NCBI GenBank assembly: GCA_963775795.1
Contig: CAVZKC010000004.1
Coordinates: 820,028 to 884,027 of the forward strand
Length of the DNA stretch: 64,000 nt
Source of the DNA: an uncultured Actinomycetes bacterium
GTDB lineage: Bacteria > Actinomycetota > Acidimicrobiia > IMCC26256 > DASPTH01
Direction of reading: 5' to 3'
The notes below the pieces were generated by a model, which was given only the letters and a program-made list of their open reading frames with translations, had not been told where the DNA came from and ran no database searches. Of this stretch, positions 4,855 through 45,319 are shown piece by piece; within the stretch, counting starts at the first letter, position 1, and each line of letters starts with the position of its first letter. The position numbers and the translations under genes are program-made.

Positions 4855-4899
4855 GCGGTGGCGCGGGCGCGCGCGATCGAGTGACGGACGGACGGACGG

Positions 4900-5742: not shown

Positions 5743-5752
5743 GGTCTGCCTC

Positions 5753-6619: not shown

Positions 6620-6631
6620 CGTCGCCTCCTC

Positions 6632-7417: not shown

Positions 7418-7434
7418 CTTGCTCCTCGGACCTG

Positions 7435-26850: not shown

Positions 26851-26938
26851 TCGGGTCCGGGTGCGCTCGGAGCTGCATCGTTTACATTCGAGAGGTCCGT
26901 GCTGCCGGTACGTTCCGGGCACGTTCGAGGGGTGTGGC

Positions 26939-27223: not shown

Positions 27224-27235
27224 ATGCTCGGTGCC

Positions 27236-27876: not shown

Positions 27877-28008
27877 CTCACAAGCTCCTTGTCCGCTCCG
27901 TTGCTACATGTACGGCAGTGCCCCGAGCTGCGCTGATGCGAAGGGACCGGCCGTCACCTCCCTAGGCCGCTCGAAGGCCCAGAACTTCGCGAACGATCCG
28001 CGTGAGAG

Positions 28009-28080
28009 GGGAGGTCGAACGGGAGGTCGAACGGGAGGTCGAACGGGAGGTCGAACGGGAGGTCGAACGGGAGGTCAACG
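28009..28080. repeat. 12-bp perfect tandem repeat GGGAGGTCGAAC x5 plus one degenerate copy
   Basis: Read directly: five identical units at 28009-28068, then gggaggtcaacg. Lies between xis and the ABC-2 permease stop. Confidence 0.95.
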
Positions 28081-28389
28081 AGAACCGCCTGGCGAGCGGC
28101 GGGCATGCGGGATCACGGAGGCCTACCGTGATGAGCGCGCCGGAACCGCCCTCGGGCTGATGGCTCCTACTCGGTGCACACACCAGTCGTTGCTCGTCCG
28201 CAACGGGGCTGGTCCAAGTGGGTGCGTGCGCAGGGACCCCCGATGAGAGTCCATGCGCCGATCCAAGGAACGTCGGAGCACTCTCAGGATCACATCGTCG
28301 GCGACACCCATCACGAGGAGGAAGTCGGGAACGAGGTCGATGGGCATTAACACGTAGCTGATCGGGCGCAGGCAGAACGCTGCCGCCTG

Positions 28390-29207
28390 TCAGGAGAGGA
28401 TGTCTTTTCGGTTGAACCACCACCACGCGATGACCAACGGCACGACGATGTAGGGGATGACGAGGAGCGCGCCGCGCAGCATGTCGTTGGTGGGGCCAGT
28501 GCCGCGAATGAACATGGTGGTCCAGGCATCGAAGTGGTGCGTGGGGAATGCTGACCGGATTCGTCCGAGGGCGCTGATGCCATCGAGAACCTGGGACACG
28601 ATGTAGATGCCGATCGCCGAGAAGATCGCGCCGGCCGGGGTATCGGTCATGGTCGAGGCCATGAATCCGAATGCGATGGCCGGCGTGAGGCTCCACAGGA
28701 CGTAGACGGTGGCGAGGGCCAGGCTTGCGAGGATGTGGGTGCTGGATTCGGGCGGGGCGCCGGAGATCTGGAGCGGGTGCCAACCGAAGGCGACGCCGCC
28801 GAGGGCGAGACCGGTGAGTGGGACGAGTGTCGCGGCCACCACGGCGAGCAGCGCCGCGCTCGCGAGCTTGACGGTGAGGAGCCGGGAACGGGTGATGGGT
28901 CGGACGAGCATTGCGCGCAGGTTTCCCCAGCTGGCCTCGGAGGCGATCGCGTCGCCGGCGAAGACGGCGACGACCACCACGAGGAGGAATCGGCTCAGGA
29001 AGAACAATGATGCGACACCGAGGTACAGGCCCGTCTTGGTGGCCAGGTAGGCGTAGGCGTCTTCTGCGTCGTTGGGATTGGGCGACGGTGGGTTGGATTT
29101 CAGGGCGATGGTGAAGATCAGTGGGATCAGGACGAGGATGCCCAACGCGATGTAGGTGCGCGGTCGGCGCCATTGCTTGAACATCTCGGTGCGAAACAAG
29201 GCAACGG

Positions 29208-29211
<4 letters not shown>
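28390..29211 (-). CDS. ABC-2 type exporter permease
   Basis: GTG 29211 overlaps the ATPase stop (GTGA). 273 aa, 6 TM helices, typical ABC-2 layout. Confidence 0.8.
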
Positions 29212-30122
<911 letters not shown>

Positions 30123-30125
30123 AGC

Positions 30126-31205
30126 TCACGCACCGTACTGGGGCGCGAGTGCCGTTCCTGGGTCGTACAGCCTCGGGATCGCGGGCGGTTGATCGGCGTT
30201 CATCGTTGGCATCGGGGTGCGGCGGATCCACCACCAGGCCGTCCCCGCGGCGCCGAAGGGGATCTCCATCCAGCGGGTGAAGGTGCTGTACAGGATCACG
30301 CCGGCAGCCGCGGCGGCCGGATTCGCTCCGAACGCGACGAGCAGGCCGGCGGTGCCGGCCTCGGCGAAGCCCACGCCGCCCGGGGTCAGGGGAACCAGGG
30401 TGAGTGCTGCTCCGGTGGCGTAGGCCGCGAACACGCCGATCGGCGAGACCGTGCCACCGACGCACACCAGGCAGAGGTACAGCAGCGTGGCCTGGAGCAG
30501 GACGTAGACCGACATCCCCAGGCTCATGCGCCGCCATGACCGCCGTACCACCTGGCCAACCTCGGTCCGCAGTGCGGCGATCACCTCGTGCGCGGGATGC
30601 CCGGCGAGACGCGACAACGCCGCAGTGGCGGTGCGCTGGAACGGACCGGGATCGCGGTTCCCAGGGTTGCGGGTCGCGAGGCGTACGGCGAAGGCGATCC
30701 CGACGAACGCGAACATGCTTATGAACGCGACCGGAAGGAGGCCGTGGGCCTTGTGATCGGTGCACGCGACCAGCAGCGCGAGCGCGAGTGCAGGGAGCAG
30801 CAGCCTGACCAATGCGTTCCACGCGTTGTTCAACAGCACGAGCACGGTGAAGTCGCTGCCGTCGTAGCCCCATGAGCGCAGCATCGTGAAGTTGAGGCCC
30901 ATCCCCAGCACTCCACCGAACGGAGCCAGGTGCGAGACCGTGCTCCCGCTGAAGTTGAGGACCAGCGCGCGGCGGTGGGACAACCCCGGTAGCGCTCCGG
31001 TGGTGACGTAGGTGTGGACGAAGAGCCCGCCAAACCAGATGGCGCCGAGCAATCCGAGCTGCACCAGCGTGAGCTGCTGGAACCGTGCGCCGACGGTCGA
31101 CCAGGCGGTGTGTGTCGTGAGCGGAACGAGCACGAGGGGCAGCGCCAACGCCACGACGCCACCGAGCAGCGTGAGTGCAGTGCGTGCGAGGCGAAGACGG
31201 CTCAC
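30126..31205 (-). CDS. MprF-like LPG_synthase_TM/UPF0104 flippase-like membrane protein
   Basis: GTG 31205 overlaps the PIG-L stop (GTGA). About 8 TM helices and the C-terminal LVPLTPGGVGFAEAG motif characteristic of this family. Confidence 0.7.
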   Translation of the reverse strand: MSRLRLARTALTLLGGVVALALPLVLVPLTTHTAWSTVGARFQQLTLVQLGLLGAIWFGGLFVHTYVTTGALPGLSHRRALVLNFSGSTVSHLAPFGGVLGMGLNFTMLRSWGYDGSDFTVLVLLNNAWNALVRLLLPALALALLVACTDHKAHGLLPVAFISMFAFVGIAFAVRLATRNPGNRDPGPFQRTATAALSRLAGHPAHEVIAALRTEVGQVVRRSWRRMSLGMSVYVLLQATLLYLCLVCVGGTVSPIGVFAAYATGAALTLVPLTPGGVGFAEAGTAGLLVAFGANPAAAAAGVILYSTFTRWMEIPFGAAGTAWWWIRRTPMPTMNADQPPAIPRLYDPGTALAPQYGA

Positions 31206-32035
31206 GAAACCGGCTCCCGGGTCGCAGCGCCCAACCCAGCGAACACGTCGTCGAGATGGGGACGCATCGGCACGTGACCACGCTCGACGAACCACTCGTG
31301 GCCGAAGATCCACCGGAATGTGCGGCGCGGTAGGCGGAGGAACATGGCCAGCGTCCGGGGCCCGGTGCCGCCCGAGATCTGCGAGCCGTGTGCCGCCATC
31401 GCCGCGCGCTTCTGCTCGGCGAACGCGCGCACGTCGATGCGGTGCGTGATCACCTCACCGTGTGAGTACGCATGCATCAGCCGCTCGGGGCGGAACTCCG
31501 ACGGCAGCCCCGGGACGAGCCGGAGTAGCCGCGCGATCCGCACGAGCAGGCCTCGGTCGACGGTGGCCTCGAGAACGATCGGGGTCGACGCGAACGCGCC
31601 GGCTCGCTGGCCAACCTCGTGAACCTGGCGATGGTCCGGATGGCCGTAGCCGCCCGCGGGGTCGTAGGTCGTGAGGACGTCGGCGTCCTCGGCGCGCAGG
31701 ATCGCGGCGAGTCGCTCCGCGGCGGCATCCGGGTCGACTCGGGAGAACGCGTCCGGATCGTCGACCAATCCGTCCAAACCGGAGTCCGCGTACCCGAGCC
31801 ACTCGACGCGCGCGCAACCCAGGATCGTGGCCGCCATCCGGAGCTCTTCGAGGCGTAGCACTCCGAGCGCGGCTCGACCGAAGCCGGGAACGCCGGTGAG
31901 GCCCGCCTCACCGCGCGTGGCCACCACGAGGACAACCCGGTGCCCGTCCGCGGCGGCCTTGGCCATCGTTCCGCCGGTGAGCGCAGCTTCGTCGTCGGGG
32001 TGCGCGTGGAAGGCGACGAGCGTGCGGCGGATCAT
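31202..32035 (-). CDS. PIG-L/LmbE-family N-acetylglucosaminyl deacetylase
   Basis: VAFHAHPDDEA motif plus HPDH downstream. ATG overlaps the GT4 stop (ATGA). Confidence 0.85.
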   Translation of the reverse strand: MIRRTLVAFHAHPDDEAALTGGTMAKAAADGHRVVLVVATRGEAGLTGVPGFGRAALGVLRLEELRMAATILGCARVEWLGYADSGLDGLVDDPDAFSRVDPDAAAERLAAILRAEDADVLTTYDPAGGYGHPDHRQVHEVGQRAGAFASTPIVLEATVDRGLLVRIARLLRLVPGLPSEFRPERLMHAYSHGEVITHRIDVRAFAEQKRAAMAAHGSQISGGTGPRTLAMFLRLPRRTFRWIFGHEWFVERGHVPMRPHLDDVFAGLGAATREPVS

Positions 32036-33150
32036 GCACCGGCTCCCGCTCGGGAGAGGAGCTCGATTCCGACGCCACGTCGTGCCGGGACGCGCTGGAT
32101 CGCCGCGGCCCGTGCGTACTCACGCTCGGTGCTGGCGAGGGCGTCGGCCCATCCGAATGTCGGCGGGTGTACCCGGTTGTGGGCGGCGATGCTCTCCCGG
32201 GTGCCGGCGTCGGCGGTGAGCGCCGTGATCGCCGCCGCGAGGCCCCGGTCGTCATCGACGAGCAGACCTTCGCGGCCGTGACGGATGTACGTGCCGACGC
32301 CCGCCTGGGCCATGCCGATGACGGGAAGGCCCGCCGCGCGAGCTTCGAGCGCCGCGATGCCGAACGACTCGAGGCGCGCCGGAGCGACGAATACGTCGGC
32401 CCGACGGTAGAGCCGTCGGATCGCGCGGTGAGGCAGACGTCCGGCGAGGTGCACCCAGTCGCTCATCGCGGCGCGATCGATCGCGCGTTCGAGTGCTGCT
32501 CGCTGCGGCCCGTCGCCAACCACGACGGCCGTCATCCGGATCTCGGCGGGAACTGCGGCTCGGGCGCGCCGCAAGGCGCGGAGCAACGGCAGGGGGCGTT
32601 TTCGGGCGGCGAGACGGTTGACCGCCACGATCACGACATGGTCTGGATCGCGCCTGACCGGACTCACCTGCCATGCCTCGGTGTCGATGGCGTTGGGGAG
32701 CACGCTCACTGGGGTGGCGGGATCGACAAGACGCTGCAGCGGGCCCGCGGCCCGTTCGCTCACTGCCGTCCACGCGATGGGGAGCTGGGTCCAGTGGGTG
32801 GCGAGGTCGAGCGAGTGCAGCGGTGTGTGCGCGCCGTCGAGCAGCGAGTGCATGGTGACGAGGGTCGGGACGCCCGCTCGACTCGCGGCGACGGCTGCAC
32901 CGAACGCGAGTGGCGTGAACAGGCCCGCGTGGCAGTGGACCTGGTCGTACCCTCCACCGAGCACGGCGCGTTTGACCTCGCGTGCAGCGGAGGGTCGCGC
33001 GCGTGCGAGGCACGACCCATCGCCGCCGAAGGCGGTCACGATGTCGACATCGTGGCTTGCGGCTCGCTGGTGCTCGACGAGTCCCGCGACGTGGATCTCG
33101 ATGCCCCCGAGGCGAGGCAGGCAGAAGTCGGAGACATGGGCGATGCGCAC
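32032..33150 (-). CDS. GT4-family glycosyltransferase (PimA/MshA/PIG-A fold class)
   Basis: N-terminal MRIAHVSDFCLPRLGGIEIHV and C-terminal E-x7-E region (ESFGIAALEARAAGLPVIG). Confidence 0.85.
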   Translation of the reverse strand: MRIAHVSDFCLPRLGGIEIHVAGLVEHQRAASHDVDIVTAFGGDGSCLARARPSAAREVKRAVLGGGYDQVHCHAGLFTPLAFGAAVAASRAGVPTLVTMHSLLDGAHTPLHSLDLATHWTQLPIAWTAVSERAAGPLQRLVDPATPVSVLPNAIDTEAWQVSPVRRDPDHVVIVAVNRLAARKRPLPLLRALRRARAAVPAEIRMTAVVVGDGPQRAALERAIDRAAMSDWVHLAGRLPHRAIRRLYRRADVFVAPARLESFGIAALEARAAGLPVIGMAQAGVGTYIRHGREGLLVDDDRGLAAAITALTADAGTRESIAAHNRVHPPTFGWADALASTEREYARAAAIQRVPARRGVGIELLSRAGAGA

Positions 33151-33254
33151 GCGTCGATGTTCGGTCGGGGAGCCTGAACTGGCGCTGAACTGCGGGCGAA
33201 CGGCTGCTCGTCGGGTTCAGCGGCGATTCAGCCGCACCCCGGCACGATCACGGT

Positions 33255-34286
33255 GTGTATCCCGTGCGCACTGCTGGGTCGCTCCCGGTGCGACGTCGGG
33301 TGCGGCCACTGATCATTGGGGAGCTCGCGGTCGTCGCGTTGCTCCTGGTCGTCTACGACCGCGTCCGCGGAGTCGCGCACGTCCACCGGGCGGCGGCCGT
33401 CGCGCACGGTTGGGCAATCATCCATCTCGAGACCGCACTCCACCTGGGCGTCGAATCCACGGTCAACCAATGGCTCGCGGGTCACACACTGCTCGGCCGG
33501 ATCGCCGTCGACTACTACCAATACCTGCACGTCACGGTGGCTCTGTGCCTGCTCGTTGCCTGCTATGTGTTCCGGCCGTCGGTGTACCGCCCCGCGCGCA
33601 ACGCGCTGCTCATCGTCAATGCCGTGGGCCTCGCCATCTATCTGCTCTACCCGGTCGCACCGCCCCGCCTGCTGCCCGGAACCACGTTCCTCGACCTGGT
33701 GGCCCGGGCCGGCTTCGGGCCGACCCATGGCGGGCCGATCCCCATCAACGAGTACGGAGCCATGCCGTCGCTGCACCTCGCGTGGGCGGCCTGGGCCGCA
33801 CTCGTCGGGTTCGCCATCACCGAAGTGCTCTGGATACGCGGCCTCGTCGTCGTACATGTGTTCCTGACCGCGTTCGTCGTCGTCGGGACGGCGAACCACT
33901 ACCTCCTCGACGTCGTGATGGGTGTCGCACTCGCGGGCTTCGCCGGCGGGTCCGCCCTCCTCCTGCGGACAGGCACGATCGCCGGCCGGTCTCGGAGCGC
34001 CACATCAACGGAGGCGCTAGCGGACGCCGGAATCGATGTCGAGCGGTGCGAGGGCGAATGTGAGGTCGGCGACCCAGACGCTTCCGAGTATCCACCCGCC
34101 AAGGACATCCGTTGCCCAGTGCACGCCGAGGTAGACGCGCGACACGCCGACGAGGAACACGATCAGCGTCGCAGCGGTCCGGGTCAACAAGGACACGAGG
34201 CCGGAGCGGCCAATGACGGTGACCACGCCGGCGAGCGCGAAGTAGGTCGCTGCGACTTGGGTCGAATGGCCGGACGGGAACGCTGA
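33255..34286 (+). CDS. PAP2_3 / Aur1-Ipt1-like phospho(inositol)transferase-type membrane protein; C-terminal limit uncertain
   Basis: Motifs AMPSLHLAWA and GTANHYLLDVV. The ORF runs 270 nt into the convergent PAP2 gene, so the true 3' end is doubtful. Confidence 0.65.
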   Translation: MYPVRTAGSLPVRRRVRPLIIGELAVVALLLVVYDRVRGVAHVHRAAAVAHGWAIIHLETALHLGVESTVNQWLAGHTLLGRIAVDYYQYLHVTVALCLLVACYVFRPSVYRPARNALLIVNAVGLAIYLLYPVAPPRLLPGTTFLDLVARAGFGPTHGGPIPINEYGAMPSLHLAWAAWAALVGFAITEVLWIRGLVVVHVFLTAFVVVGTANHYLLDVVMGVALAGFAGGSALLLRTGTIAGRSRSATSTEALADAGIDVERCEGECEVGDPDASEYPPAKDIRCPVHAEVDARHADEEHDQRRSGPGQQGHEAGAANDGDHAGEREVGRCDLGRMAGRER

Positions 34287-34529
34287 CGAGAGCGGTTGTT
34301 GGAGGTGTATCCCGACGGGCGGCCGAGCGCGCTGCACGACCTCTTTGCTCAGGATGCTGAGGATCGATGCTCCGCCGACGGCGAGCGCGACGAACAGTGC
34401 GAGCCAACCTCGGGAGCAGATGACAAGAGCCACGGCAGCCGCGAAGGCGATCGGAATGACCACCGCGCTGCTTCCGAGCCAGGTGACGATCTGCATCGTG
34501 TGAGTCCACGTCGGCGTGCGGTGGTCCAC
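34017..34529 (-). CDS. PAP2-superfamily lipid phosphatase
   Basis: Acid-phosphatase motifs KEVVQRARP, SFPSGHS, SRVYLGVHWATDVLGG. Confidence 0.75.
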   Translation of the reverse strand: MDHRTPTWTHTMQIVTWLGSSAVVIPIAFAAAVALVICSRGWLALFVALAVGGASILSILSKEVVQRARPPVGIHLQQPLSSAFPSGHSTQVAATYFALAGVVTVIGRSGLVSLLTRTAATLIVFLVGVSRVYLGVHWATDVLGGWILGSVWVADLTFALAPLDIDSGVR

Positions 34530-34722
34530 GAATCAGCGGGTGATCTCGGCGTCGAACGCGGTTGAGCTGTCATGCGCCGACGCCAACTCGACGAGGGATC
34601 CCCAGCGCGACGGCGACAACGAACGCTCCGCCGAAGACAATGAAGACACGGAGAGCGACGCGTCGTGCATCGTGGGCGGGCATGAGATGAGCGTCTACGG
34701 CCGGGACCTGGGGATCCATTGA

Positions 34723-34992
34723 CTAGTTGGTCACATACGGCCAGAACACGATCACACCGATGGTCGCCGCGAGCCCAGAGGTCAACAGCGCTGCGGCCGC
34801 AGCGAGATCCTTCACGGCGCGGATGTCCTCGTCGTACTCCCGCTGGACGTAGTCGGCAAGCCTCTCGATCGACGTGTTCAGGATCTCGGACGTCATGACA
34901 ACACTTGCGCAGACAAGCAACACGGCCCAGCGCGTCGTCGACACATCGAGCGTCGCCGCGAGCACGAAAACGGCAAGGAACACTCCCACCAT
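34723..34992 (-). pseudogene. dgkA: DgkA-family diacylglycerol/undecaprenol kinase, N-terminally truncated
   Basis: SEILNTSIERLADYV...IRAVKDLAAAAALL is the DgkA core. Family-like sequence continues upstream of the ATG (RWLAGQGPNLRI) with no start codon before an in-frame TGA. 89 aa versus about 120 expected. Confidence 0.6.
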
Positions 34993-35114
34993 GATCCGCA
35001 GGTTGGGTCCCTGACCTGCGAGCCAGCGCGGCTGAACCGGCCGGATCCTCAGTCTTGCTTCAGCGCGCGTTCAGATTCGCTGCGCGATCCTGTGGGTCTG
35101 GGGAAGGAGCGCGC

Positions 35115-35792
35115 GTGCGCGTGCTGGTCGTCGAGGACGAGAAGAAGGTCGCGGCGGCGGTTCGGCGCGGGCTCGAGGCCGAGGGGTTCGCCGTCGATGT
35201 CGCACTCACCGGAACCGACGGGCTCTGGATGGCGACCGAGAGCACCTACGACGTGATCGTGCTCGACATCATGCTCCCGGGCATGAACGGGTTCGACGTG
35301 TGCGCGAAGGTCCGCGATGCCGGGATCTGGACACCGATCCTGATGCTCACGGCGAAGGACGGCGAGTACGACCAGGCCGAAGCCCTCGACACCGGCGCGG
35401 ACGACTACCTCACCAAACCCTTCTCGTTCGTCGTGCTCCTGGCCCGGATTCGTGCATTGCTCCGCCGGAGTGGCCGGTGGGAGCGGGTGATCCACCAGGC
35501 CGGCGACCTGTCGGTCGACCCGGCGACACATCGGTGCACGCGCGCCGGCGTCGACGTGAAGCTCACCGCCCGCGAGTTCGCAGTCCTGGAGTTCCTGATC
35601 CGCCGCCGAGGTGAGGTGGTGTCGAAGGCCGAGATCCTGGACAACGTCTGGGATTTCGCGTTCGACGGGGATCCGAACATCGTCGAGGTGTACATCCGCC
35701 ACCTGCGCACGAAGATCGACGAGCCGTTCGACCGCCAGGCGATCCACACGATCCGAGGAGCCGGCTATCGGCTCGATCCGGACGGCGGTTGA
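35115..35792 (+). CDS. OmpR/PhoB-family response regulator
   Basis: GGAAGGAG then GTG 35115. VLVVEDE...DVIVLDIMLPGMNG...LTAK receiver domain and winged-helix output (LTAREFAVLEFL...RGAGYRL). Confidence 0.9.
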   Translation: MRVLVVEDEKKVAAAVRRGLEAEGFAVDVALTGTDGLWMATESTYDVIVLDIMLPGMNGFDVCAKVRDAGIWTPILMLTAKDGEYDQAEALDTGADDYLTKPFSFVVLLARIRALLRRSGRWERVIHQAGDLSVDPATHRCTRAGVDVKLTAREFAVLEFLIRRRGEVVSKAEILDNVWDFAFDGDPNIVEVYIRHLRTKIDEPFDRQAIHTIRGAGYRLDPDGG

Positions 35793-35794
35793 GC

Positions 35795-35995
35795 ATGCGG
35801 CGTCGCCTCGCGACAGTCCGCGTGCGGATCACAGTGGTCGCAGTGCTCGTGGTGGGCCTCGCGCTCCTCGCCGGCGGCGCGTTGCTCCTCGTAACGTATC
35901 GGGCATCGCTCAAGAACGACGTGGAGACGGCTGCGCGTTTGCGCTCCCGCGACATCGGCGACGCGCTCACGAGCGGAGGGCTCACACCGACGGTC
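35795..35995 (+). pseudogene. sensor histidine kinase, N-terminal about 65 aa only
   Basis: ATG 35795 lies 3 nt after the RR stop. TM helix VRITVVAVLVVGLALLAGGALLLV and the start of a sensor region follow. Sequence then becomes the reverse complement of an integrase gene. No HisKA/ATPase domains. Confidence 0.6.
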
Positions 35996-35996
35996 T

Positions 35997-36402
35997 TGAA
36001 CGCTCGACGCAACACCGCATGCACATTGCGGATCGACTTCGGGGATAGATCCTCGCGAAGCTGCCCGTAGAAGCGATCGAGCATCGCCGGGGTCACCTTC
36101 GCCAACTTCGTGCTGCCGCGCACGGGGTTGATCTGACGGTCAATGATTCGGCGGTAGTCGTAGACCGTCGTCAGAGCCAGGTCCGGAGCTGCATGCTCGA
36201 GCCACGCCGCCAGCGCCTCGGCGACGGTCTTGCGCGGGTCGTCGACGTTGCCCGAGCGTGCCTCGATGATCAGCTGACGCTCGGCGTCCTCGGCGTCCCG
36301 CTTCGTGCCGTGCACGGTGCGTCGGACGCGTCGCTCTTTCCCCGTCGTTGTGTCTGTGCCGGCGTACACGACGACCCGCCAGGTGCCACGCGCTCGTATC
36401 AC
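35997..36402 (-). pseudogene. tyrosine integrase, N-terminal (arm-binding/SAM-like) about 135 aa only
   Basis: IRARGTWRVVVYAGTDTTTGKERRVRRTVHGTKRDAEDAERQL...KVTPAMLDRFYGQLREDLSPKSIRNVHAVLRRAFKT. The catalytic domain is absent and the reading frame runs into the antisense of the kinase fragment. Confidence 0.7.
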
Positions 36403-36498
36403 GGGCCCGAGGGTTATCCGGTGCCAAATCCGGTGCCAAGGCCCAGTTGAGAATCCAATAGGTCCCAGGTAGGGCGCATCTGACCAGGGACTCTGCGG

Positions 36499-36571
36499 TG
36501 GGCCGCCAGGGACTCGAACCCTGAACCTGCGGGTTAAAAGCCCGATGCTCTGCCAGTTGAGCTAGCGGCCC
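36499..36571 (-). tRNA. tRNA-Lys (anticodon UUU)
   Basis: GGGCCGC-TA-GCTC-AACTGGCA-GAGC-A-TCGGG-CTTTTAA-CCCGC-AGGTT-CAGGG-TTCGAGT-CCCTG-GCGGCCC-A. Full 73-nt cloverleaf folded by hand with one U-C mismatch at 27:43. No encoded CCA. Confidence 0.9.
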
Positions 36572-38131: not shown

Positions 38132-38944
38132 TCAAGAACGGCGCTTGGCGAGCCAGTCGTCGACGAATGCCTGGTCGTCCGGTGGATAGATCCCCCCCAT
38201 GCTCAGGTTGATGCCGCCGTCGACGTAGATCGTCTGGCCGTTGACGAACTGTGAGTCCTCGGTCGCAAGAAACAGCGCGACGGGCGCGATGTCGGTCTCG
38301 GGATCACCCGTCCGCCCGAGAGGGAGGCCCTTCACCATCTCGGCGATCCCCGGGTTCTTCTCGACCAGCTCGTAGTACGCGGCGCTCGCGGCCGCAGGAG
38401 CGATCGCGTTGCATCCGATTCGGTATCGGCCCCATTCCGCTGCCGCCGACACGGTGAGCGCCCGGATCCCCGCCTTGGTCGCGTTGTAGTCGCTGTGGAA
38501 CCACTGGCCGTTGTCGCCGTCCGAGGAATAGAAGTTGACGATCCGGCCGCCACCCTGGTCCTTCATGATCGGAAACACCGCCTGCATCGCCCAGAGGGTG
38601 GCGTAGAGACCGACCCGGAGCATGAAGTCCCACATTTCGTCGGACTTGTCCTCCAGCGGCACGTGCGGCGACAATGCGATGGCGTCGTTGACGAGCACGT
38701 CGACTCGGCCGAACTGTTCGTGCGCGGTCGCTACCATGCGCTCCACGTCGGCGCGCCGCGACACGTCGGTGCGCAGGAACGTCACTCGGTCGCCGGCTTC
38801 CTCCGCGACGCGCCGGCCGTCGTCCTCCGCGATATCTGCGACGAAGATGTGAGCTCCCTCGTTCGCGAACCGTCGGCAGATCCCGCGCCCGATGCCGCGC
38901 GCACCACCCGTGACGATCGCCACCTTGCCGTCCAGTCGCCCCAT
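38132..38944 (-). CDS. SDR-family short-chain dehydrogenase/reductase
   Basis: TGGARGIG cofactor motif and YNATK catalytic motif. 270 aa. Confidence 0.9.
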   Translation of the reverse strand: MGRLDGKVAIVTGGARGIGRGICRRFANEGAHIFVADIAEDDGRRVAEEAGDRVTFLRTDVSRRADVERMVATAHEQFGRVDVLVNDAIALSPHVPLEDKSDEMWDFMLRVGLYATLWAMQAVFPIMKDQGGGRIVNFYSSDGDNGQWFHSDYNATKAGIRALTVSAAAEWGRYRIGCNAIAPAAASAAYYELVEKNPGIAEMVKGLPLGRTGDPETDIAPVALFLATEDSQFVNGQTIYVDGGINLSMGGIYPPDDQAFVDDWLAKRRS

Positions 38945-40383: not shown

Positions 40384-40574
40384 GACGCGGCGGTGGACGC
40401 GGGGCCGGTGGCGTCGTAGGGTCCCGTGGCGCCGGGGACGGCTGAAGGCCGTCGACGTGCGCGAGGCGCCGGGCGCGGAGACATCCGCACCGATCGGCGC
40501 GACAATCCCGCTGCTGCCGGTTTCACCGAGCAGTAGCGGTCGTCAAGCCTGACACCAGTAATGGGGGGGAACAG

Positions 40575-41774
40575 ATGAAGCGGAAGGTTCTTGCGTTGCT
40601 CAGCGCGACTGCGGTCGTCGCCGCGCTCGTATCCGTCACTGCGCCGGCGGGCGCGGCCAAGCCGGCGTCGGGAGAGCCGCTCCAGTTCGGCTACATAGAC
40701 TCGTTAATTGGTGCGAGCGCCGTCCCGTCGCTCAGGCAGGCCCTCGATGCGTACGTCGACGACTGGAACCAGCGGGGCGGCCACGACGGCCAACCCATCG
40801 AGATCGTCTACGAAGAGGCCGGCATCATCAACGCGGGCGAGCAGTTGGCGGCGGCGCGCACCTTGAACTCCAACCCGAAGATCCTCGGGGTCCTCCAGCC
40901 AGGAACCTGCCAGGTGACCACGCCGCTGTTCGCGACGTCCCAGATCCCGATCCTCATTCAGGGGGTCAACACCACGGACTGTGTGCAGGACCCGTCGTTC
41001 ATGTTCACCCAGGCTGAGCAGGCAGACACGCTCCCGGCACTGAAGTGGGCGATCGACAAGGGCGTCAAGAACTACGGCGTGATGTATCCCGCCATCCCGC
41101 AGCTCCGCGCCGGCTTCGTCACGCCGCTCGAGGACTACCTCGCCCTCCACCCGGATCTGGACGTCAAGCTCACCGTGACCGAGGTCCCACTCGTGGCGAC
41201 CGGCGCCGACTTCGACGGCGCGGTCGCGAAGCTCAAGGCGGCCGGGGTCACCGCGTTGTTCCAGGCCGGGACCCCGGAAAGTACACCCCTTGCGATCCAG
41301 TCCGGGATCCGCAACGGGTTCGGACCCGCGGACGGCGTGAAGTGGATCCTCGGTTCGAACCTCTACGACCCGAAGATCCTGCCCGGCCTCCCCGAACTCG
41401 AAGGGACCTACATCCTGTCGAGCAACTACCCGTGGGAGGACACGAGCAACAAGCAAGTGAAGAAGATGAACAAGACCATCGGCAACGAGGTCGATAACAA
41501 GGACGGGTTCGCCGAGTTCGGCTACAAGTTCGGATACCTGCTCGAGCAGAGCCTCAAGAAGATCGACGGCGAGGTCACGCGAGAAGCGTTGTCCAAGGTC
41601 TGGGCATCGAAGGCCTTCAAGAAGTTCCAGCCCGTCCTGGTGCCCTACACCGTCAACTTCACGGACGGCCTGTCGAACCCCGCCGGGGGGATGATCCTCG
41701 TCGTCAAGAACGGCCAATTCGTGCCCGAGAGCGACTTCGTGACGATCCCGGCGAAGCAGTTCATCAAGCAGTAG
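40575..41774 (+). CDS. ABC transporter substrate-binding protein, LivJ/Peripla_BP_6 type, copy 1
   Basis: 399 aa. Signal peptide MKRKVLALLSATAVVAALVSVTAPAGAAKP. Type-I periplasmic binding protein layout. Confidence 0.85.
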   Translation: MKRKVLALLSATAVVAALVSVTAPAGAAKPASGEPLQFGYIDSLIGASAVPSLRQALDAYVDDWNQRGGHDGQPIEIVYEEAGIINAGEQLAAARTLNSNPKILGVLQPGTCQVTTPLFATSQIPILIQGVNTTDCVQDPSFMFTQAEQADTLPALKWAIDKGVKNYGVMYPAIPQLRAGFVTPLEDYLALHPDLDVKLTVTEVPLVATGADFDGAVAKLKAAGVTALFQAGTPESTPLAIQSGIRNGFGPADGVKWILGSNLYDPKILPGLPELEGTYILSSNYPWEDTSNKQVKKMNKTIGNEVDNKDGFAEFGYKFGYLLEQSLKKIDGEVTREALSKVWASKAFKKFQPVLVPYTVNFTDGLSNPAGGMILVVKNGQFVPESDFVTIPAKQFIKQ

Positions 41775-41815
41775 CCACGGATCAGCCGGGCGAAGTTCAC
41801 CATGACGTGGTCGGC

Positions 41816-41847
41816 GACCGACGTCGGGGTCATCCTCGACGTCGGTC
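41816..41847 (+). terminator. hairpin about 40 nt after the SBP copy 1 stop (11-bp perfect stem, 10-nt loop)
   Basis: GACCGACGTCG-gggtcatcct-CGACGTCGGTC. No T-tract. Confidence 0.4.
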
Positions 41848-42022
41848 GCAGCCGCCCACCCGGGAGCAACGCCGCGTCCTCCCGGTAGGCGTTCCGGTGT
41901 TCGAAGTGCCTTGTGCTCGGTTCGGGGGGGCCGTACACAACGGGTGACAATGTGCGACACTCTTGCAGTTCAGACTTCATGGACCAGGGAGGAAATTGAT
42001 GCAATTGATTAGGGGGGAACGG

Positions 42023-43222
42023 ATGAAGCGGAAGGTTCTTGCGTTGCTCAGCGCGGCTGCGGTCGTCGCCGCGCTCGTGTCCGTCACTGCGCCGGCGGGC
42101 GCGGCCAAGCCGGCGTCGGGAGAGCCGCTCCAGTTCGGCTACATAGACTCGTTAATTGGTGCGAGCGCCGTCCCGTCGCAAACGCAGGCCCTCGATGCGT
42201 ACGTCGACGACTGGAACCAGCGGGGCGGCCACGACGGCCAACCCATCGAGATCGTCTACGAAAAGGCCGGCATCATCGACACGGGCGCGCAGTTGGCGGC
42301 GGCGCGCACCTTCGGCTCCAACCCGAACATCCTCGCGGTCCTCCAGCCAGGAATCTGCCAGGTGACCACGCCGCTGCTCGCGACGTTCCAGATCCCGATC
42401 CTCGTTCAGCAGACCAATACCACGGACTGTGTGCAGGACCCGTCGTTCATGTTCAACCCGAACCAGCAGGCAGACACGCTCCCGGCACTGAAGTGGGCGA
42501 TCGACAAGGGCGTCAAGAACTACGGCGTGATGTATCCCGCCATCCCGCAGCTCCGAGCCGGCTTCGTCACGCCGCTCGAGGACTACCTCGCCCTCCACCC
42601 GGATCTGGACGTCAAGCTCACCGTGACCGAGGTCCCACTCGTGGCGACCGGCGCCGACTTCGACGGCGCGGTCGCGAAGCTCAAGGCGGCCGGGGTCACC
42701 GCGTTGTTCCAGGCCGGGACCCCGGAAAGTACACCCCTTGCGATCCAGTCCGGGATCCGCAACGGGTTCGGACCCGCGGACGGCGTGAAGTGGATCCTCG
42801 GTTCGAACCTCTACGACCCGAACATCCTGCCCGACCTCCCCGAACTCGAAGGGACCTACATCCTGTCGAGCAACTACCCGTGGGAGGACACGAGCAACAA
42901 GCAAGTGAAGAAGATGAACAAGACCATCGGCAACGAGATCGAAATCAAGGACGGGTTCGCCGAGTTCGGCTACAAGCTCGGATACCTGCTCGAGCAGAGC
43001 CTCAAGAAGATCGACGGCGAGGTCACGCGAGAAGCGTTGTCCAAGGTCTGGGCATCGAAGGCCTTCAAGAAGTTCCAGCCCGCCCTGGTGCCCTACACCG
43101 TCAACTTCACGGACGGCCTGTCGAACCCCGCCGGGGGGATGATCCTCGTCGTCAAGAACGGCCAATTCGTAACCGAGAGCGACTTCGTGACGATCCCGGC
43201 GAAGCAGTTCATCAAGCAGTAG
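42023..43222 (+). CDS. ABC transporter substrate-binding protein, copy 2
   Basis: 399 aa. About 29 residue differences from copy 1 by hand alignment. Confidence 0.85.
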   Translation: MKRKVLALLSAAAVVAALVSVTAPAGAAKPASGEPLQFGYIDSLIGASAVPSQTQALDAYVDDWNQRGGHDGQPIEIVYEKAGIIDTGAQLAAARTFGSNPNILAVLQPGICQVTTPLLATFQIPILVQQTNTTDCVQDPSFMFNPNQQADTLPALKWAIDKGVKNYGVMYPAIPQLRAGFVTPLEDYLALHPDLDVKLTVTEVPLVATGADFDGAVAKLKAAGVTALFQAGTPESTPLAIQSGIRNGFGPADGVKWILGSNLYDPNILPDLPELEGTYILSSNYPWEDTSNKQVKKMNKTIGNEIEIKDGFAEFGYKLGYLLEQSLKKIDGEVTREALSKVWASKAFKKFQPALVPYTVNFTDGLSNPAGGMILVVKNGQFVTESDFVTIPAKQFIKQ

Positions 43223-43263
43223 CCACGGATCAGCCGGGCGAAGTTCACCATGACGTGGTCGGC

Positions 43264-43295
43264 GACCGACGTCGGGGTCATCCTCGACGTCGGTC
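43264..43295 (+). terminator. same hairpin after SBP copy 2
   Basis: Identical GACCGACGTCG...CGACGTCGGTC inverted repeat. Confidence 0.4.
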
Positions 43296-43468
43296 GCAGC
43301 CGCCCACCCGGGAGCAACGCCGCGTCCTCCCGGTAGGCGTTCCGGTGTTCGAAGTGCCTTGTGCTCGGTTCGGGGGGGCCGTACACAACGGGTGACAATG
43401 TGCGACACTGTTGCAGTTCAGACTTCATGGACCAGGGGGAATTGATGCAATTGGTGAGGGGGGAACAG

Positions 43469-44668
43469 GTGAAGCGGAAGGTTCTTGCGTTGCTCAGCGC
43501 GGCTGCGGTCGTCGCCGCGCTCGTGTCCGTCACTGCGCCGGCGGGCGCGGCCAAGCCGGCGTCGGGAGAGCCGCTCCAGTTCGGCTCCATAGACTCGTTA
43601 ATTGGTGCGAGCGCCGTCCCGTCGGTCAGGCAGGCCCTCGATGCGTACGTCGACGACTGGAACCAGCGGGGCGGCCACGACGGCCAACCCATCGAGATCG
43701 TCTACGAAGAGGCCGGCATCATCGACACGGGCGCGCAGTTGGCGGCGGCGCGCACCTTCGGCTCCAACCCGAACATCCTCGCGGTCCTCCAGCCAGGAAT
43801 CTGCCAGGTGACCACGCCGCTGTTCGCGACGTTCCAGATCCCGATCCTCGTTCAGCCGGTCAACACCACGGACTGTGTGCAGGACCCGTCGTTCATGTTC
43901 ACCCCGGCTGCACAGGCAGACACGCTCCCGGCACTGAAGTGGGCGATCGACAAGGGCGTCAAGAACTACGGCGTGATGTATCCCGCCATCCCGCAGCTCC
44001 GCGCCGGCTTCGTCACGCCGCTCGAGGACTACCTCGCCCTCCACCCGGATCTGGACGTCAAGCTCACCGTGACCGAGGTCCCGCTCGTGGCGACCGGCGC
44101 CGACTTCGACGGCGCGGTCGCGAAGCTCAAGGCGGCCGGGGTCACCGCGTTGTTCCAGGCCGGGACCCCGGAAAGTACACCCCTTGCGATCCAGTCCGGG
44201 ATCCGCAACGGGTTCGGACCCGCGGACGGCGTGAAGTGGATCCTCGGTTCGAACCTCTACGACCCGAACATCCTGCCCGACCTCCCCGAACTCGAAGGGA
44301 CCTACATCCTGTCGAGCAGCTACCCGTGGGAGGACACGAGCAACAAGCAAGTGAAGAAGATGAACAAGACCATCGGCAACGAGATCGAAATCAAGGACGG
44401 GTTCGCCGAGCGCGGCTACGAGTTCGGATACCTGCTCGAGCAGAGCCTCAAGAAGATCGACGGCGAGGTCACGCGAGAAGCGTTGTCCAAGGTCTGGGCA
44501 TCGAAGGCCTTCAAGAAGTTCCAGCCCGCCCTGGTGCCCTACACCGTCAACTTCACGGACGGCCTGTCGAACCCCGCCGGGGGGATGATCCTCGTCGTCA
44601 AGAACGGCCAATTCGTGCCCGAGAGCGACTTCGTGACGATCCCGGCGAAGCAGTTCATCAAGCAGTAG
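43469..44668 (+). CDS. ABC transporter substrate-binding protein, copy 3 (GTG start)
   Basis: 399 aa. The start codon position reads GTG instead of ATG. No hairpin-containing spacer follows. Confidence 0.8.
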   Translation: MKRKVLALLSAAAVVAALVSVTAPAGAAKPASGEPLQFGSIDSLIGASAVPSVRQALDAYVDDWNQRGGHDGQPIEIVYEEAGIIDTGAQLAAARTFGSNPNILAVLQPGICQVTTPLFATFQIPILVQPVNTTDCVQDPSFMFTPAAQADTLPALKWAIDKGVKNYGVMYPAIPQLRAGFVTPLEDYLALHPDLDVKLTVTEVPLVATGADFDGAVAKLKAAGVTALFQAGTPESTPLAIQSGIRNGFGPADGVKWILGSNLYDPNILPDLPELEGTYILSSSYPWEDTSNKQVKKMNKTIGNEIEIKDGFAERGYEFGYLLEQSLKKIDGEVTREALSKVWASKAFKKFQPALVPYTVNFTDGLSNPAGGMILVVKNGQFVPESDFVTIPAKQFIKQ

Positions 44669-44779
44669 CCACGGATTCACCCCGACCGCAACGCCGCGAC
44701 TCAGTGCCCTCTCAGGTCGGGATCGCCATGCTCCGCCGTGAAAGTGGAGTGTGAGATCCCGATCAGGGAGGTGCACGAG

Positions 44780-45319
44780 GTGCGATCCAAACCGAGCGTT
44801 GCTCGTTTCTCAGCTGCTCTGGCCGCCGGCGTCGTGCTCCTCGTCACCATCGGGTTGACGGGTCCCGCGTTCGCAGCCCAGGACCCGGTGCTCACGGATC
44901 AGCAGCGAACGCAGCTCACCCAGGAGTTCGCGGCGTTCCGCGACTGCCTGCAACGGAACGGCGTGACCTTGTCGGAGCGACCCGCCGCCGGGCTCCGCGG
45001 GCCGCGTCCCATGCTCACCGACGAGCAGCGCGCCGCGTTCGAGGGAGCACGGGAGGCGTGCGGTGACCTCCTCCCCGATCGGCCGGTGCTGAGCGACGAG
45101 CAGCGTGCACAGCTCCGGACGCAGCACGAGGCGTTCCGCAGCTGTCTCCAGGAGAACGGCGTCACGTTGCCGGAGCGCGCCGCGGCCGCCCATCCGCTGA
45201 CCCGACCGATGCTCACTTACGAGCAGCACGCCGAGCTCGAGCAGGCCCGTCAGGCATGCGGTGACCTCCGCCCGGACCTTGGGTTCCGGGATGGACACCA
45301 GCCAGACGGGATGGTCTGA
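44780..45319 (+). CDS. secreted repeat protein with four LTxxQ-type motifs and four Cys (Spy/CpxP/ZraP-like?)
   Basis: AGGGAGG then GTG 44780 and a signal peptide ending AFA|AQD. Motifs PVLTDQQRTQL..C, PMLTDEQRAAF..C, PVLSDEQRAQL..C, PMLTYEQHAEL..C. Confidence 0.55.
   Translation: MRSKPSVARFSAALAAGVVLLVTIGLTGPAFAAQDPVLTDQQRTQLTQEFAAFRDCLQRNGVTLSERPAAGLRGPRPMLTDEQRAAFEGAREACGDLLPDRPVLSDEQRAQLRTQHEAFRSCLQENGVTLPERAAAAHPLTRPMLTYEQHAELEQARQACGDLRPDLGFRDGHQPDGMV

Follow-up and report, generated by a model that had tools for sequence, protein, structure and literature searches.

A young tandem array of three LivJ-like binding-protein genes with amino-acid change at about the neutral rate

Relation to described systems

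Binding proteins of the LivJ/LivK/BraC (HAAT) type (PF13458, type I or cluster B) are the closest described relatives of the products of three tandem genes in a 64,000-nt stretch of DNA from an uncultured Actinomycetes bacterium (the window; contig CAVZKC010000004.1). They share with the array proteins the family, the two-lobe fold and an N-terminal export signal, and the GPxDG motif and F312 of the array proteins align with LivJ E226 and F276. In contrast to these systems, the array has no adjoining LivHM permease or LivGF ATPase genes, its proteins lack a lipobox and form a very small, isolated subfamily, and omega (dN/dS) within the array clade is about 1 and not about 0.1. A single transporter served by several tandem binding-protein paralogues is known, for instance, from oppA1-A2-A3 of Borrelia burgdorferi, where the paralogues presumably extend the range of ligands; those genes have their permease and ATPase genes beside them, and the copies are old and strongly diverged. 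The array is similar in that adjacent full-length binding-protein genes each have their own start codon and signal peptide, but its copies are young (dS 0.01-0.04), recently homogenised, orphan and change at about the neutral rate.

Gene conversion combined with selection for diversity is characteristic of the cassette systems vls and pilS. Paralogous antigen families of Mycobacterium tuberculosis have been described as gene-conversion-driven diversity hotspots (PMC13061034). These systems and the array share a segmental, non-reciprocal exchange between paralogues that yields mosaic alleles, as well as neighbouring strains that differ sharply at the locus while the flanks are nearly identical. 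The array differs from them in that no silent partial cassettes feed an expression site and every gene is complete, by a fold that is small-molecule-binding and not that of a known antigen or adhesin, and by its host, a free-living soil bacterium. With slightly less than even confidence, we propose that the array is a small diversifying panel of exported binding proteins, which would have a common ligand anchor and differing specificity loops.

Architecture, composition and products of the array

Three direct repeats with 97% identity start at positions 40564, 42012 and 43458, spaced by 1448 and 1446 nt, and each contains a coding sequence of 1200 nt (399 codons plus TAG; Table 1). Repeat and ORF coordinates thereby confirmed the three 1200-bp ORFs of 399 aa, with these periods, that had been proposed by a sequence-only reading of the window; its remarks on the GTG start of copy 3, the TTA codon in each copy and the lower GC content of the region were equally correct.

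Table 1. Features of the array and its downstream neighbour (positions in the window).
Feature	Coordinates	Strand	Description and basis
PBP copy 1 (W1)	40575..41774	+	399 aa, ATG start; ORF and translation
PBP copy 2 (W2)	42023..43222	+	399 aa, ATG start; ORF and translation
PBP copy 3 (W3)	43469..44668	+	399 aa, GTG start; ORF and translation
Spacer 1	41775..42022	+	248 nt, part of repeat unit; alignment of units
Spacer 2	43223..43468	+	246 nt; alignment of units
Predicted Sec-type signal peptide	40575..40658, 42023-42106, 43469-43552	+	codons 1-28: MKRK, hydrophobic core, AGA|AKP; from translation
TTA Leu codon (codon 44)	40704..40706, 42152-42154, 43598-43600	+	one per copy
Variable patch 1	40731..41018, 42179-42466, 43625-43912	+	codons 53-148, N-lobe
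Amino-acid-invariant block	41019..41372, 42467-42820, 43913-44266	+	codons 149-266, most of C-lobe
Variable patch 2	41373..41531, 42821-42979, 44267-44425	+	codons 267-319, return to N-lobe; flanks invariant F312
Downstream gene	44738..45319	+	193-aa exported protein, internal 198-nt duplication (repeat D4), paired cysteines

The two spacers differ by 5 substitutions and a 2-nt indel (2 gap columns). Spacer 1 is unlike the sequence 5′ of copy 1 and the sequence 3′ of copy 3; its homologue in the array of assembly L002 is spacer 2 (11 mismatches in 165 aligned positions) and not spacer 1, and neither a promoter or terminator consensus nor a match to Rfam was found in it. The GC content of the array is 0.63-0.65 compared to about 0.70-0.73 in nearby DNA. 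This dip is caused by codon positions 1 and 2, i.e. by amino-acid composition, and GC3 of the array genes (0.88-0.90) is normal for this genome; the dip is thus no sign of a foreign origin. TTA is absent from the 11,129 codons of the 28 other window genes. Codon 44 is among the fastest-changing codons (site-model posterior 1.0), with TTA, TTG, TCG, ACA, CTA, TTT and TTC as its states among alleles.

W1 matched the Pfam family PF13458 Peripla_BP_6 (E 1.8e-28, 100.7 bits with a cutoff of 31.7), and a Foldseek search with its AF2 model (pLDDT 83.8, pTM 0.83) gave HAAT-type binding proteins as top matches, the best of which bind branched-chain amino acids, aromatic acids, fatty acids or urea. Between array types the signal segment is conserved (dN 0.035-0.053, with 0.10-0.25 in the mature part); the window copies have no lipobox cysteine there, and no homologue has any Cys in this segment. 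The products are predicted exported, non-lipoprotein type I (LivJ/HAAT-like) ligand-binding proteins, in agreement with the LivJ-like fold and Sec signal of the sequence-only reading. If the organism is single-membraned, a transport binding protein that lacks a lipid anchor would be unusual.

The family-invariant motifs TGADFDG and RNGFGPxDG are located in the block of codons 149-266. An hhalign match to LivJ at 74% probability placed Q108/P109 at C78/S79, G130/V131 at A100/T102, T233 at Y202, A252/D253 at E226 and the invariant F312 at F276; this loop mapping, which is tentative, relies on the LivJ sequence and its ligand-contact residues, and in it the GPxDG motif aligns with the LivJ residue binding the amino group of the ligand. 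The subfamily is very small: a word-indexed search of 5.8 billion proteins yielded 10 relatives, and 28 cluster representatives were found at E < 1e-30, while none occurred in GTDB species representatives or in plasmids and NCBIfam holds no model for it. Long-term purifying selection acts on the distant homologues (omega about 0.1, with dS saturated), and fragments of the family were found in rhizosphere metatranscriptome assemblies. Pfam scans of the 64-kb window detected no LivH/M permease and no LivG/F ATPase genes, as the sequence-only reading had stated, and none were present beside the homologues examined.

Differences among the copies and rates of change

The three copies differ pairwise at 39, 32 and 28 nucleotides, and W1 is the most divergent, with about 10 N-lobe residues unique to it. 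Among the 40 variable codons, 35 alter the encoded residue and the remaining 5 show synonymous variation only; 25 are found in the first 150 codons, 2 of these being synonymous. Over codons 29-148, W1 and W2 differ by 24.5 non-synonymous and 2.5 synonymous changes. Patch 1 includes the loops aligned to LivJ C78/S79 and A100/T102 as well as loop 131-148, which has low confidence in the AF2 model, and several window-variable sites map to the distal ends of alpha2 and alpha3, two helices. In codons 149-266, 0 non-synonymous and 1-2 synonymous changes were counted per pair, the only differences in these 354 nt being at codon 178 (copy 2) and codon 205 (copy 3). Thus the near-identical central block of about 350 nt, the variable patches and three quoted multi-nucleotide codon rewrites were all recovered as first described, with amino-acid change concentrated in the N-lobe, and an estimate of about 29 residue differences between W1 and W2 turned out to be exact; for the first 450 nt or so, the 2 synonymous codons were right, and about 18 changed codons was an undercount.

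Synonymous divergence in the central block (0.011-0.023) is not below that in the variable patches (0.012-0.041), and the block does differ between the paralogues of L002 and L010 (dN 0.15-0.21). Its identity among the three window copies is due to purifying selection in a young triplication. Of the concerted evolution suggested earlier, the conserved block as its product was not upheld; the copies are, judging from alignments with the B-type arrays of other strains, to which this statement is limited, homogenised in this lineage.

With GC3 at close to 0.9, 87.8% of changes should be non-synonymous under neutrality, and the window copies show 87.5% (35/40); omega is therefore near 1 and not above, and the apparent non-synonymous excess does not translate into a dN/dS above 1 as originally supposed. 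While NG86 gave omega values of 2-3, codon-frequency-aware likelihood gave 0.97-1.06, with tree-based M0 estimates of 1.06 for 11 alleles and 0.97 for 14 alleles, and values of 0.45-1.85 for the pairs of window copies, not significantly different from 1. For comparison, the flanking genes have an ML dN of 0.012, a dS of 0.068 and an omega of 0.18 against L010, the flank intergenic divergence is 0.051, and the array genes have a dN of 0.09-0.19 and a dS of 0.10-0.12 (ML) against the sister array type. An omega of 0.18 on the tree of the array genes was rejected (p = 2e-48), and their amino acids change about as fast as neutral DNA.

Both the omega indistinguishable from 1 and the neutral proportion of replacements in the window would follow from relaxed constraint, under which redundant paralogues would need only to fold and to be exported, loops would drift and conversion would shuffle them with no adaptive role. 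A tree-free per-codon count also fits this explanation, as two classes, about 1/3 frozen and 2/3 nearly neutral, are sufficient and a strongly selected class is unneeded; so do omega values of 0.27-0.6, below 1, for K1-B1 orthologues within one array type, and single-base indels breaking one of the L001 copies and two of the L002 copies, although these may be assembly errors, since both assemblies also break flanking genes. However, the genes are under selection and not decaying. The window and L010 both retain three intact copies, every allele is free of stop codons, with 12-16 expected without selection against stops, and all indels in the window and Illumina-derived alleles are multiples of 3. 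In addition, 178 of the 371 mature codons never change the amino acid, about one third of the codons are frozen, and there is a strong filter against radical replacements that extends to the variable codons, yet the mean rate equals the neutral one (mean Grantham distance of accepted replacements 51 vs 71.5 expected; 4.9% vs 20.9% above 100).

The filters on stops, frozen codons and radical changes cap the mean omega at about 0.47 unless there is positive selection, and this value was rejected (tree LRT 33, p = 9e-9; tree-free count p = 3e-5). Model M2a was preferred to M1a for the whole tree (LRT 95; 11% of sites at omega 6.75) and in each of four segments with its own tree (LRTs 16-26), with an omega of 5-7 in the high class, the test being prone to false positives under recombination, which is demonstrably present here. 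These results suggest, but do not prove, strong positive selection on the array genes. Moreover, no copy is conserved as a 'working' copy between array types, and we regard relaxed constraint as a serious, though less likely, alternative.

Concerning the diversification of a ligand pocket proposed at first sight, the high-omega sites of the wider allele set are indeed enriched in LivJ-equivalent ligand-binding loops (p 0.0005-0.02); this part did not extend to the window-variable sites, 8 of 32 of which are in putative pocket loops (p = 0.11). Fast loops are also expected under relaxed constraint, and the enrichment in binding loops discriminates poorly between the two readings. Against a panel of binding proteins speak the whole-gene omega, which is not above 1 with codon bias modelled, and the window copies, which on their own have no significant non-synonymous excess.

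Alleles in other assemblies and exchange between copies

The same locus carries three-copy arrays in three further long-read assemblies (L001, L002 and L010), tandem junctions were found in two Illumina-based JGI contigs (L007 and L009), and specific variant states recur in short-read soil contigs. The W2 protein has 0 amino-acid differences to the slot-2 copy of L001, which carries a 1-nt assembly deletion, and is identical to the slot-2 copy of L007 over the extent of that contig; W3 and the slot-3 copy of L001 differ by 4 non-synonymous and 2 synonymous changes. W1 and A1, in the same slot of genomes with about 98-99.6% identity, are separated by 29 non-synonymous and 3 synonymous changes. 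The array types are discrete (K1-B1 23 nt, K2-B2 6 nt, W1-B1 about 104 nt) at similar flank divergence and coexist in strains that are otherwise 97-98% identical. One allele, F1, is B3/C1-like at nt 1-360, B1-like at 361-600, B3-like at 601-840 and B2-like at 841-1200, and a slot-1 soil contig combines the N half of W1 with a W3-like C half. Alleles from other soil assemblies are thus mosaics of paralogues, which demonstrates gene conversion.

In the lineage of this strain, one repeat unit (coding sequence plus spacer) spread over the array by re-duplication or gene conversion, at a synonymous distance about one quarter to one third of that to the sister array type. Since then, the copies have diverged almost solely by N-lobe amino-acid changes. 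Across the population, about one third of the codons, including the fold core and the C-lobe GPxDG motif, are frozen and the other codons change at or above the neutral rate; segmental gene conversion moves variants between copies and strains and thereby creates mosaic alleles. As a diversifying panel, the binding proteins would probably pass their ligands on to a transporter or sensor whose genes lie elsewhere.

Mosaic alleles formed by segmental conversion, as in antigenic-variation families, discrete types in closely related strains and a slot 1 that differs between near-identical strains would also be expected if the exposed proteins were recognised by a phage receptor-binding protein, a bacteriocin or a competitor protein. 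Selection would then favour change anywhere on the exposed surface, variation being supplied by shuffling among the paralogues, and both lobes do diverge fast between array types (dN 0.09-0.28 across all parts of the mature protein), the signal peptide alone being conserved. However, the high-omega sites gather in cleft-type loops and are not evenly spread, all copies are full-length expressed-type genes and not silent cassettes, no phage, toxin or partner was identified, and no precedent for a binding protein of this family as such a target was found in the literature searches; we consider such an arms race a serious alternative of rather low probability.

An origin of the pattern in an antisense gene, a diversity-generating retroelement, GC-biased gene conversion or an assembly artefact is highly improbable. 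Antisense ORFs of 418 aa cover copies 1 and 2 (392 aa for copy 3), and NG86 omega in the antisense frame is 0.5-0.66, which results from the first position of the forward codons being changed most often. The + frame alone agrees with the GC content by codon position (0.60 / 0.42 / 0.90), and the antisense gene was rejected; the Pfam match, the signal peptide and the homologues, reaching down to 25% identity, all belong to the + frame. The antisense ORF is a shadow frame as is common in high-GC genes, where the scarcity of TTA, CTA and TCA codons leaves it free of stops; in the array, the TTA of codon 44 provides its stop codon. Targets of diversity-generating retroelements likewise vary on ligand-binding surfaces and at codon positions 1 and 2. 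Such an element was rejected, as no reverse transcriptase was found among about 50 ORFs scanned across the window; the array also lacks a template repeat and adenine specificity, all base pairs being involved in the differences. GC-biased gene conversion was rejected because the changes are not AT-to-GC biased, derived GC-to-AT changes being at least as frequent as AT-to-GC changes. The public assemblies used come from long-read metagenomes and contain some indel errors; nevertheless, the recurrence of arrays and variant states in independent long-read and short-read data excluded an artefact.

The 193-aa downstream gene has the highest dN of the flanking genes. It is syntenic with the array in 4 of 4 arrays and is called on the + strand in L010 as well.

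Layout of the array and family of the encoded proteins

The window, with high-GC DNA (0.65-0.73), is part of a contig of 2.41 Mb from an uncultured soil bacterium. It carries three tandem binding-protein (PBP) genes, W1 to W3, which start 1448 and 1446 nt apart (see the table). Each copy is a full-length ORF with its own start codon and signal peptide, preceded by a G-rich ribosome-binding site. Three further long-read assemblies (L001, L002 and L010) have this three-slot array at the corresponding locus, its junctions recur in two Illumina-based JGI contigs (L007 and L009), and short-read soil contigs repeat single variant states. Indels in the genes come in multiples of three, with the exception of four single-base ones in two long-read assemblies whose flanking genes are broken as well; L010 has these slots intact. 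The array is thus real, and explanations of the artefact type are very improbable.

Features of the window and of a related contig
Feature	Position	Strand	Remarks
Respiratory cluster	3577-7854	-	gene order: ferredoxin, two genes for the N- and C-terminal parts of cytochrome b, Rieske protein, 440-aa cytochrome c
Strain-variable stretch	26858-36494 and 36497-36571		about 9.6 kb, missing from L001
Integrase fragments	35563-36402		N-terminal arm/SAM-like part only
Short-chain dehydrogenase gene	38132-38944	-	
Region of the repeat unit	40564-44676		
W1	40575-41774	+	1200 nt, 399 residues
W2	42023-43222	+	1200 nt, 399 residues
W3	43469-44668	+	1200 nt, 399 residues
Spacers between the copies			248 and 246 nt
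TTA codons at codon 44	40704-40706, 42152-42154, 43598-43600		one per copy
Antisense ORF, 418 aa	40704-41960	-	codon boundaries shared with W1
Antisense ORF, 418 aa	42152-43408	-	codon boundaries shared with W2
Antisense ORF, 392 aa	43598-44776	-	codon boundaries shared with W3
Exported-protein gene, 193 aa	44738-45319	+	
66-residue repeats of the 193-aa protein	44885-45078, 45083-45276		71% DNA identity
Hydrolase-LuxR fusion gene, 365 aa	45818-46915	-	
Counterpart of the 200-aa gene beside C1	61266-61968	-	96% identical
C1, dispersed PBP copy	L003 1933-3572		
200-aa gene adjoining C1	L003 3965-4667		

The encoded proteins score 100.7 bits with Pfam family PF13458 (Peripla_BP_6; E 1.8e-28), whose curated cutoff is 31.7 bits, the match spanning positions 12-306 of the 343 in the profile, and profile matches in the PDB to HAAT binding proteins reach E values down to 6e-14. 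An AF2 model built from 22 sequences (pLDDT 83.8, pTM 0.83) shows alternating strand-helix units, and nearly all of its best 50 Foldseek matches in the PDB are type I binding proteins (E 3e-17 to 3e-12, TM 0.52-0.69). Most of these 50 are bacterial HAAT-type solute-binding proteins, and the AmiC amide receptor and the ligand-binding domains of GABA-B and glutamate receptors are also among them; the closest are HAAT-type proteins binding branched-chain amino acids, aromatic acids, fatty acids or urea. The PBPs are accordingly predicted to have the two-lobed, hinged alpha/beta type I fold of the HAAT/LivJ type.

The N-terminus reads as a Sec signal peptide (MKRK, a 17-residue hydrophobic core, AGA|AKP). 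Unlike lipoprotein binding proteins of single-membrane bacteria, which carry a lipobox with an invariant cysteine, the PBPs have none, and residues 1-111 contain no cysteine in any of the alleles and homologues checked. LivJ-type proteins are encoded together with LivHM and LivGF, whereas Pfam scans of about 50 ORFs in the 64 kb found neither a LivH/LivM permease nor a LivG/LivF ATPase gene, so that the orphan status proposed in the sequence-only reading holds within the window. Genes of this type were likewise absent from the flanks of L001, L002 and L010 and from those of L004 and L006, the loci of homologues with 59-61% identity. Scans of the spacers against Rfam and for promoter and terminator consensus motifs gave no match.

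The codon-position GC of the PBP genes (0.60/0.42/0.90) identifies the plus frame as the coding frame and indicates that the locally low GC content reflects amino-acid composition and not foreign origin. A long ORF also runs antisense to each copy and ends at its single TTA codon. In this frame the substitutions mimic purifying selection, with dN/dS (omega) of 0.5-0.66 by Nei-Gojobori counting (NG86). Codon-position GC, the Pfam match and shadow-frame logic ruled out the antisense ORFs as true genes; judged on sequence grounds, they are shadow ORFs of the kind that usually accompanies high-GC genes.

The subfamily is very small: ten relatives came from a word-indexed search of 5.8 billion proteins, and a full HMMER scan of 1.84 billion representatives gave 28 at E < 1e-30, the closest with 47% identity. 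Two scans of GTDB species representatives and one of metagenome contigs yielded no related locus, and neither a tblastn search of plasmids nor an NCBIfam scan matched the PBPs. The close clade was sampled with 18 alleles, comprising W1-3 (this window), A1-3 (L001), B1-3 (L002), K1-3 (L010), C1 (L003), D1-2 (L007), E1 (L008) and F1 (L009). C1 is a fourth, dispersed copy close to B3/K3 on another contig of the sample that gave L010. It is flanked by a 69-aa fragment that by eye resembles the C-terminal end of an IS110-family transposase, and it also adjoins a 200-aa gene with a counterpart in the window. Evidently, PBP copies can move out of the array.

Substitution rates and evidence for selection

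Among the three copies 40 codons vary, 35 of them with an amino-acid change, and W1 and W2 differ at 29 residues. These counts, the multi-base codon differences and the conserved centre (codons 149-266, with only two synonymous differences) agree with the sequence-only reading, to which the pattern looked like diversifying selection on a ligand pocket. NG86 counting seemed to favour such selection: dN/dS came to 1.05-3.1 when the W copies were compared with one another and to 1.8-3.2 across array types, the lowest Fisher p being 1e-7. We set the values of 2-3 aside, as codon-frequency-aware methods put omega at about 1; NG86 overstates the ratio because a GC3 near 0.9 leaves few synonymous changes available, and the two- to three-fold inflation at such GC3 is a methodological warning. 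Pairwise maximum-likelihood (ML) estimates were 0.85-1.8 between array types and 0.5-2.5 in the closest pairs, GY94-F61 likelihood-ratio tests against omega = 1 were not significant, and the one-ratio model M0 on the tree gave 1.06 for 11 alleles and 0.97 for 14. Since the neutral non-synonymous share is 0.878, the 35 of 40 changes in the window (0.875) are as expected under unconstrained evolution.

These values, which assume like all our rate calibration that synonymous and intergenic sites are near neutral, are still exceptional. Omega of the flanking genes is 0.18 (ML, 1439 codons) and that of distant homologues about 0.1, with saturated dS; amino-acid change in the PBP genes is eight to sixteen times faster than in neighbouring genes. 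Between the W and B strains, flanking intergenic DNA differs by 0.051 and non-synonymous sites of the PBP genes by 0.10-0.21. Saturation of synonymous sites was rejected as a cause, since about 6% of conserved codons differ compared with roughly 40% estimated by us at saturation, and so was GC-biased gene conversion, as the changes show no AT-to-GC bias.

A whole-gene omega near 1 is also what relaxed constraint in redundant copies would produce, and this explanation is possible, if doubtful. That the copies are pseudogenes was rejected, and the genes are not decaying: the alleles contain no stop codon, where 12-16 would be expected per about 500 substitutions without selection against stops. 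At 178 of 371 mature codons the amino acid never changes, and the accepted replacements are far milder than chance would give at those codons (Grantham distance averaging 51 vs 71.5; 4.9% vs 20.9% above 100). Together, frozen codons and the filter for conservative replacements would hold mean omega at or below about 0.47 if no replacement were fixed above the neutral rate, and the likelihood on the tree rejected this value (LRT 33, p = 9e-9), as did a tree-free count (p = 3e-5). About a third of the codons are frozen and the remainder evolve at approximately the neutral rate or faster. The site model M2a was preferred to M1a (LRT 95), with 11% of sites at omega 6.75 in alleles with recombination, which inflates such tests; it was also favoured in four of four segments with their own trees (LRT 16-26), while the tree-free per-codon distribution also fits without a strongly selected class. 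Positive selection is thus supported indirectly and by recombination-sensitive tests, and this part of the earlier claim stands in that weaker form, whole-gene omega being about 1.

Gene conversion, position of the changes and interpretation

Strains B and K carry three clearly distinct paralogues (dN 0.14-0.22 between slots), whereas strains W, A and D have a single type in all slots, nearest to B1/K1. In the B array, spacer 2 and not spacer 1 is the homologue of both W spacers (11 mismatches in 165); together with the single slot type, this means that one unit spread over the array of the W lineage by re-duplication or conversion. Synonymous distances among the W copies (0.010-0.023, NG86) are between about one quarter and one third of that separating W from B. 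Later amino-acid differences among the W copies lie only in the N-lobe (codons 29-148 and 267-330), with none in the C-lobe block. As synonymous divergence is alike in the N-lobe parts and the block, the identity of the block reflects purifying selection in a young triplication and not later conversion. The locus is therefore a young, homogenised and then N-lobe-diverged triplet of exported LivJ-like proteins.

Gene conversion is active and segmental and yields mosaic alleles. F1 consists of four pieces (B3/C1-like at nt 1-360, B1-like at 361-600, B3-like at 601-840, B2-like at 841-1200), with 0-2 mismatches per 120 nt to the closest donor type in the B1/B2-like segments and 3-9 in the B3/C1-like ones. 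A1 is W1 carrying a W3-like tract, and a soil contig of run X1, placed at slot 1 by the unique sequence that precedes it, combines an N half like that of W1 with a C half like that of W3. W1 and A1, in the same slot and with flanking genes about 99.6% identical, differ by 29 non-synonymous and 3 synonymous changes. At a flank divergence of about 2-3%, array types are discrete (K2-B2 6 nt, K1-B1 23 nt, W1-B1 about 104 nt). Close strains thus show both conversion-made mosaics and discrete array types.

The mosaics recall cassette-type antigenic variation, in which segmental conversion likewise operates; that system, however, has one expressed gene and silent partial donors, whereas all three copies here are full-length. 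A diversity-generating retroelement was rejected: no reverse transcriptase domain was found among about 50 window ORFs scanned, the required template repeat has no counterpart other than the gene copies themselves, and instead of adenine-confined differences there are also C/G, C/T and G/T pairs, at every codon position.

For the location of the changes, the PBP profile was aligned to E. coli LivJ by hhalign (74% probability). In this alignment, Q108/P109 correspond to LivJ C78/S79, G130/V131 to A100/T102, T233 to Y202, D253 within an invariant GPxDG to E226 within GPEG, and the invariant F312 to F276; the remaining positions aligned to presumed contacts hold variable residues. Sites with a posterior above 0.9 for omega > 1 include 44, 53, 108, 110, 130, 148, 230-237, 307 and 315. 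High-omega sites are enriched within ±3 residues of LivJ-aligned positions (8 of 19, p = 0.005; 12 of 28, p = 0.0005), also after removal of a stretch placed by eye (p = 0.02 and 0.0045). For the sites variable among W1-W3 the enrichment is not significant (8 of 32, p = 0.11). Targeting of the pocket, as earlier proposed, is therefore only partly borne out, in that the alignment points to it across the wider allele set and not for the window copies alone. Several of the W1-W3 sites sit at far helix ends, and between array types both lobes diverge, the signal peptide alone being conserved. Divergence of both lobes would suit an arms race over exposed surface, which we consider unlikely; if an antagonist does drive the changes, these proteins would represent a kind of arms-race target that is new for soil bacteria.

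Hypervariable codon 44 is TTA in each window copy and TTG, TCG, ACA, CTA, TTT or TTC in other alleles; TTA occurs in none of the 11,129 codons of 28 other window genes. Rapid turnover at this site, with TTA as a by-product, would be a likelier explanation than a regulatory codon of the bldA type.

Our tentatively preferred reading, to which we give close to an even chance, is that the PBPs bind small ligands through a conserved C-lobe anchor, that the copies may differ in specificity loops, that selection would favour this diversity, and that the proteins would work with a transporter or sensor encoded elsewhere. If the copies do differ in ligand, they constitute a natural experiment in re-tuning specificity within a few per cent of neutral divergence and could supply closely related scaffolds for biosensor design. 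In a more far-reaching version, which is improbable, the array would be a dedicated diversification device with full-length paralogues as products and donors, conversion recombining specificity loops and frequency-dependent selection keeping many alleles. It might serve to capture or neutralise changing molecules of competitors or plants (signals, antibiotics, siderophore-like compounds) or, alternatively, to evade phages or toxins docking on PBPs; if true, bacteria would have an analogue of variable receptor repertoires, built on the periplasmic-binding-protein fold. Literature searches for precedents turned up nothing specific on binding proteins under diversifying selection or as phage receptors.

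The locus is real and unusual, yet of a known kind, namely tandem paralogous binding-protein genes. Among envelope proteins, solute-binding proteins normally rank with the better conserved ones, and their binding residues are usually the part that varies least. In contrast, this is a retained three-gene family with swapped segments, whose changes appear to include cleft loops; fragments in rhizosphere metatranscriptome assemblies are weak evidence that it is also transcribed, DNA carry-over being possible.

Neighbouring features

The zone just upstream of the array is strain-variable. Besides a response regulator, the stretch of about 9.6 kb missing from the otherwise 98% identical L001 encodes envelope-lipid functions: an ABC ATPase, an LPG-synthase transmembrane domain, a PIG-L deacetylase, a GT4 glycosyltransferase, two PAP2 proteins and a diacylglycerol kinase. 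Its end adjoins a tRNA-Lys(TTT) gene and integrase fragments, with a C-terminal ...YSH... motif just past the tRNA; a search for a second copy of the tRNA-Lys end, which would bound an island on the upstream side, found none. In L010 the response regulator adjoins a kinase and MptA_B/GT87 and PAP2 genes instead. Less than 2 kb from the array lies a further presence/absence difference: the window and L001 have the short-chain dehydrogenase gene, whereas L002 and L010 lack it.

Directly downstream of the array, an exported protein without a match to a known family consists of two repeats with two cysteines each. The dN of its gene (0.034-0.038; NG86 omega about 0.7-0.8) exceeds that of every other flanking gene, and public annotations place the gene on the minus strand in L001 and on the plus strand in L010, codon-position GC favouring plus; a functional link between this protein and the binding proteins is possible. 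Some 1.1 kb past the downstream end of the array, a gene encodes a fusion of an alpha/beta-hydrolase fold with a DNA-binding domain of the LuxR type (GerE). This protein shows strong conservation between strains (omega about 0.1) and is possibly a small-molecule-sensing regulator. Far upstream, the gene order of the respiratory cluster differs from the qcrCAB arrangement typical of Actinomycetota.
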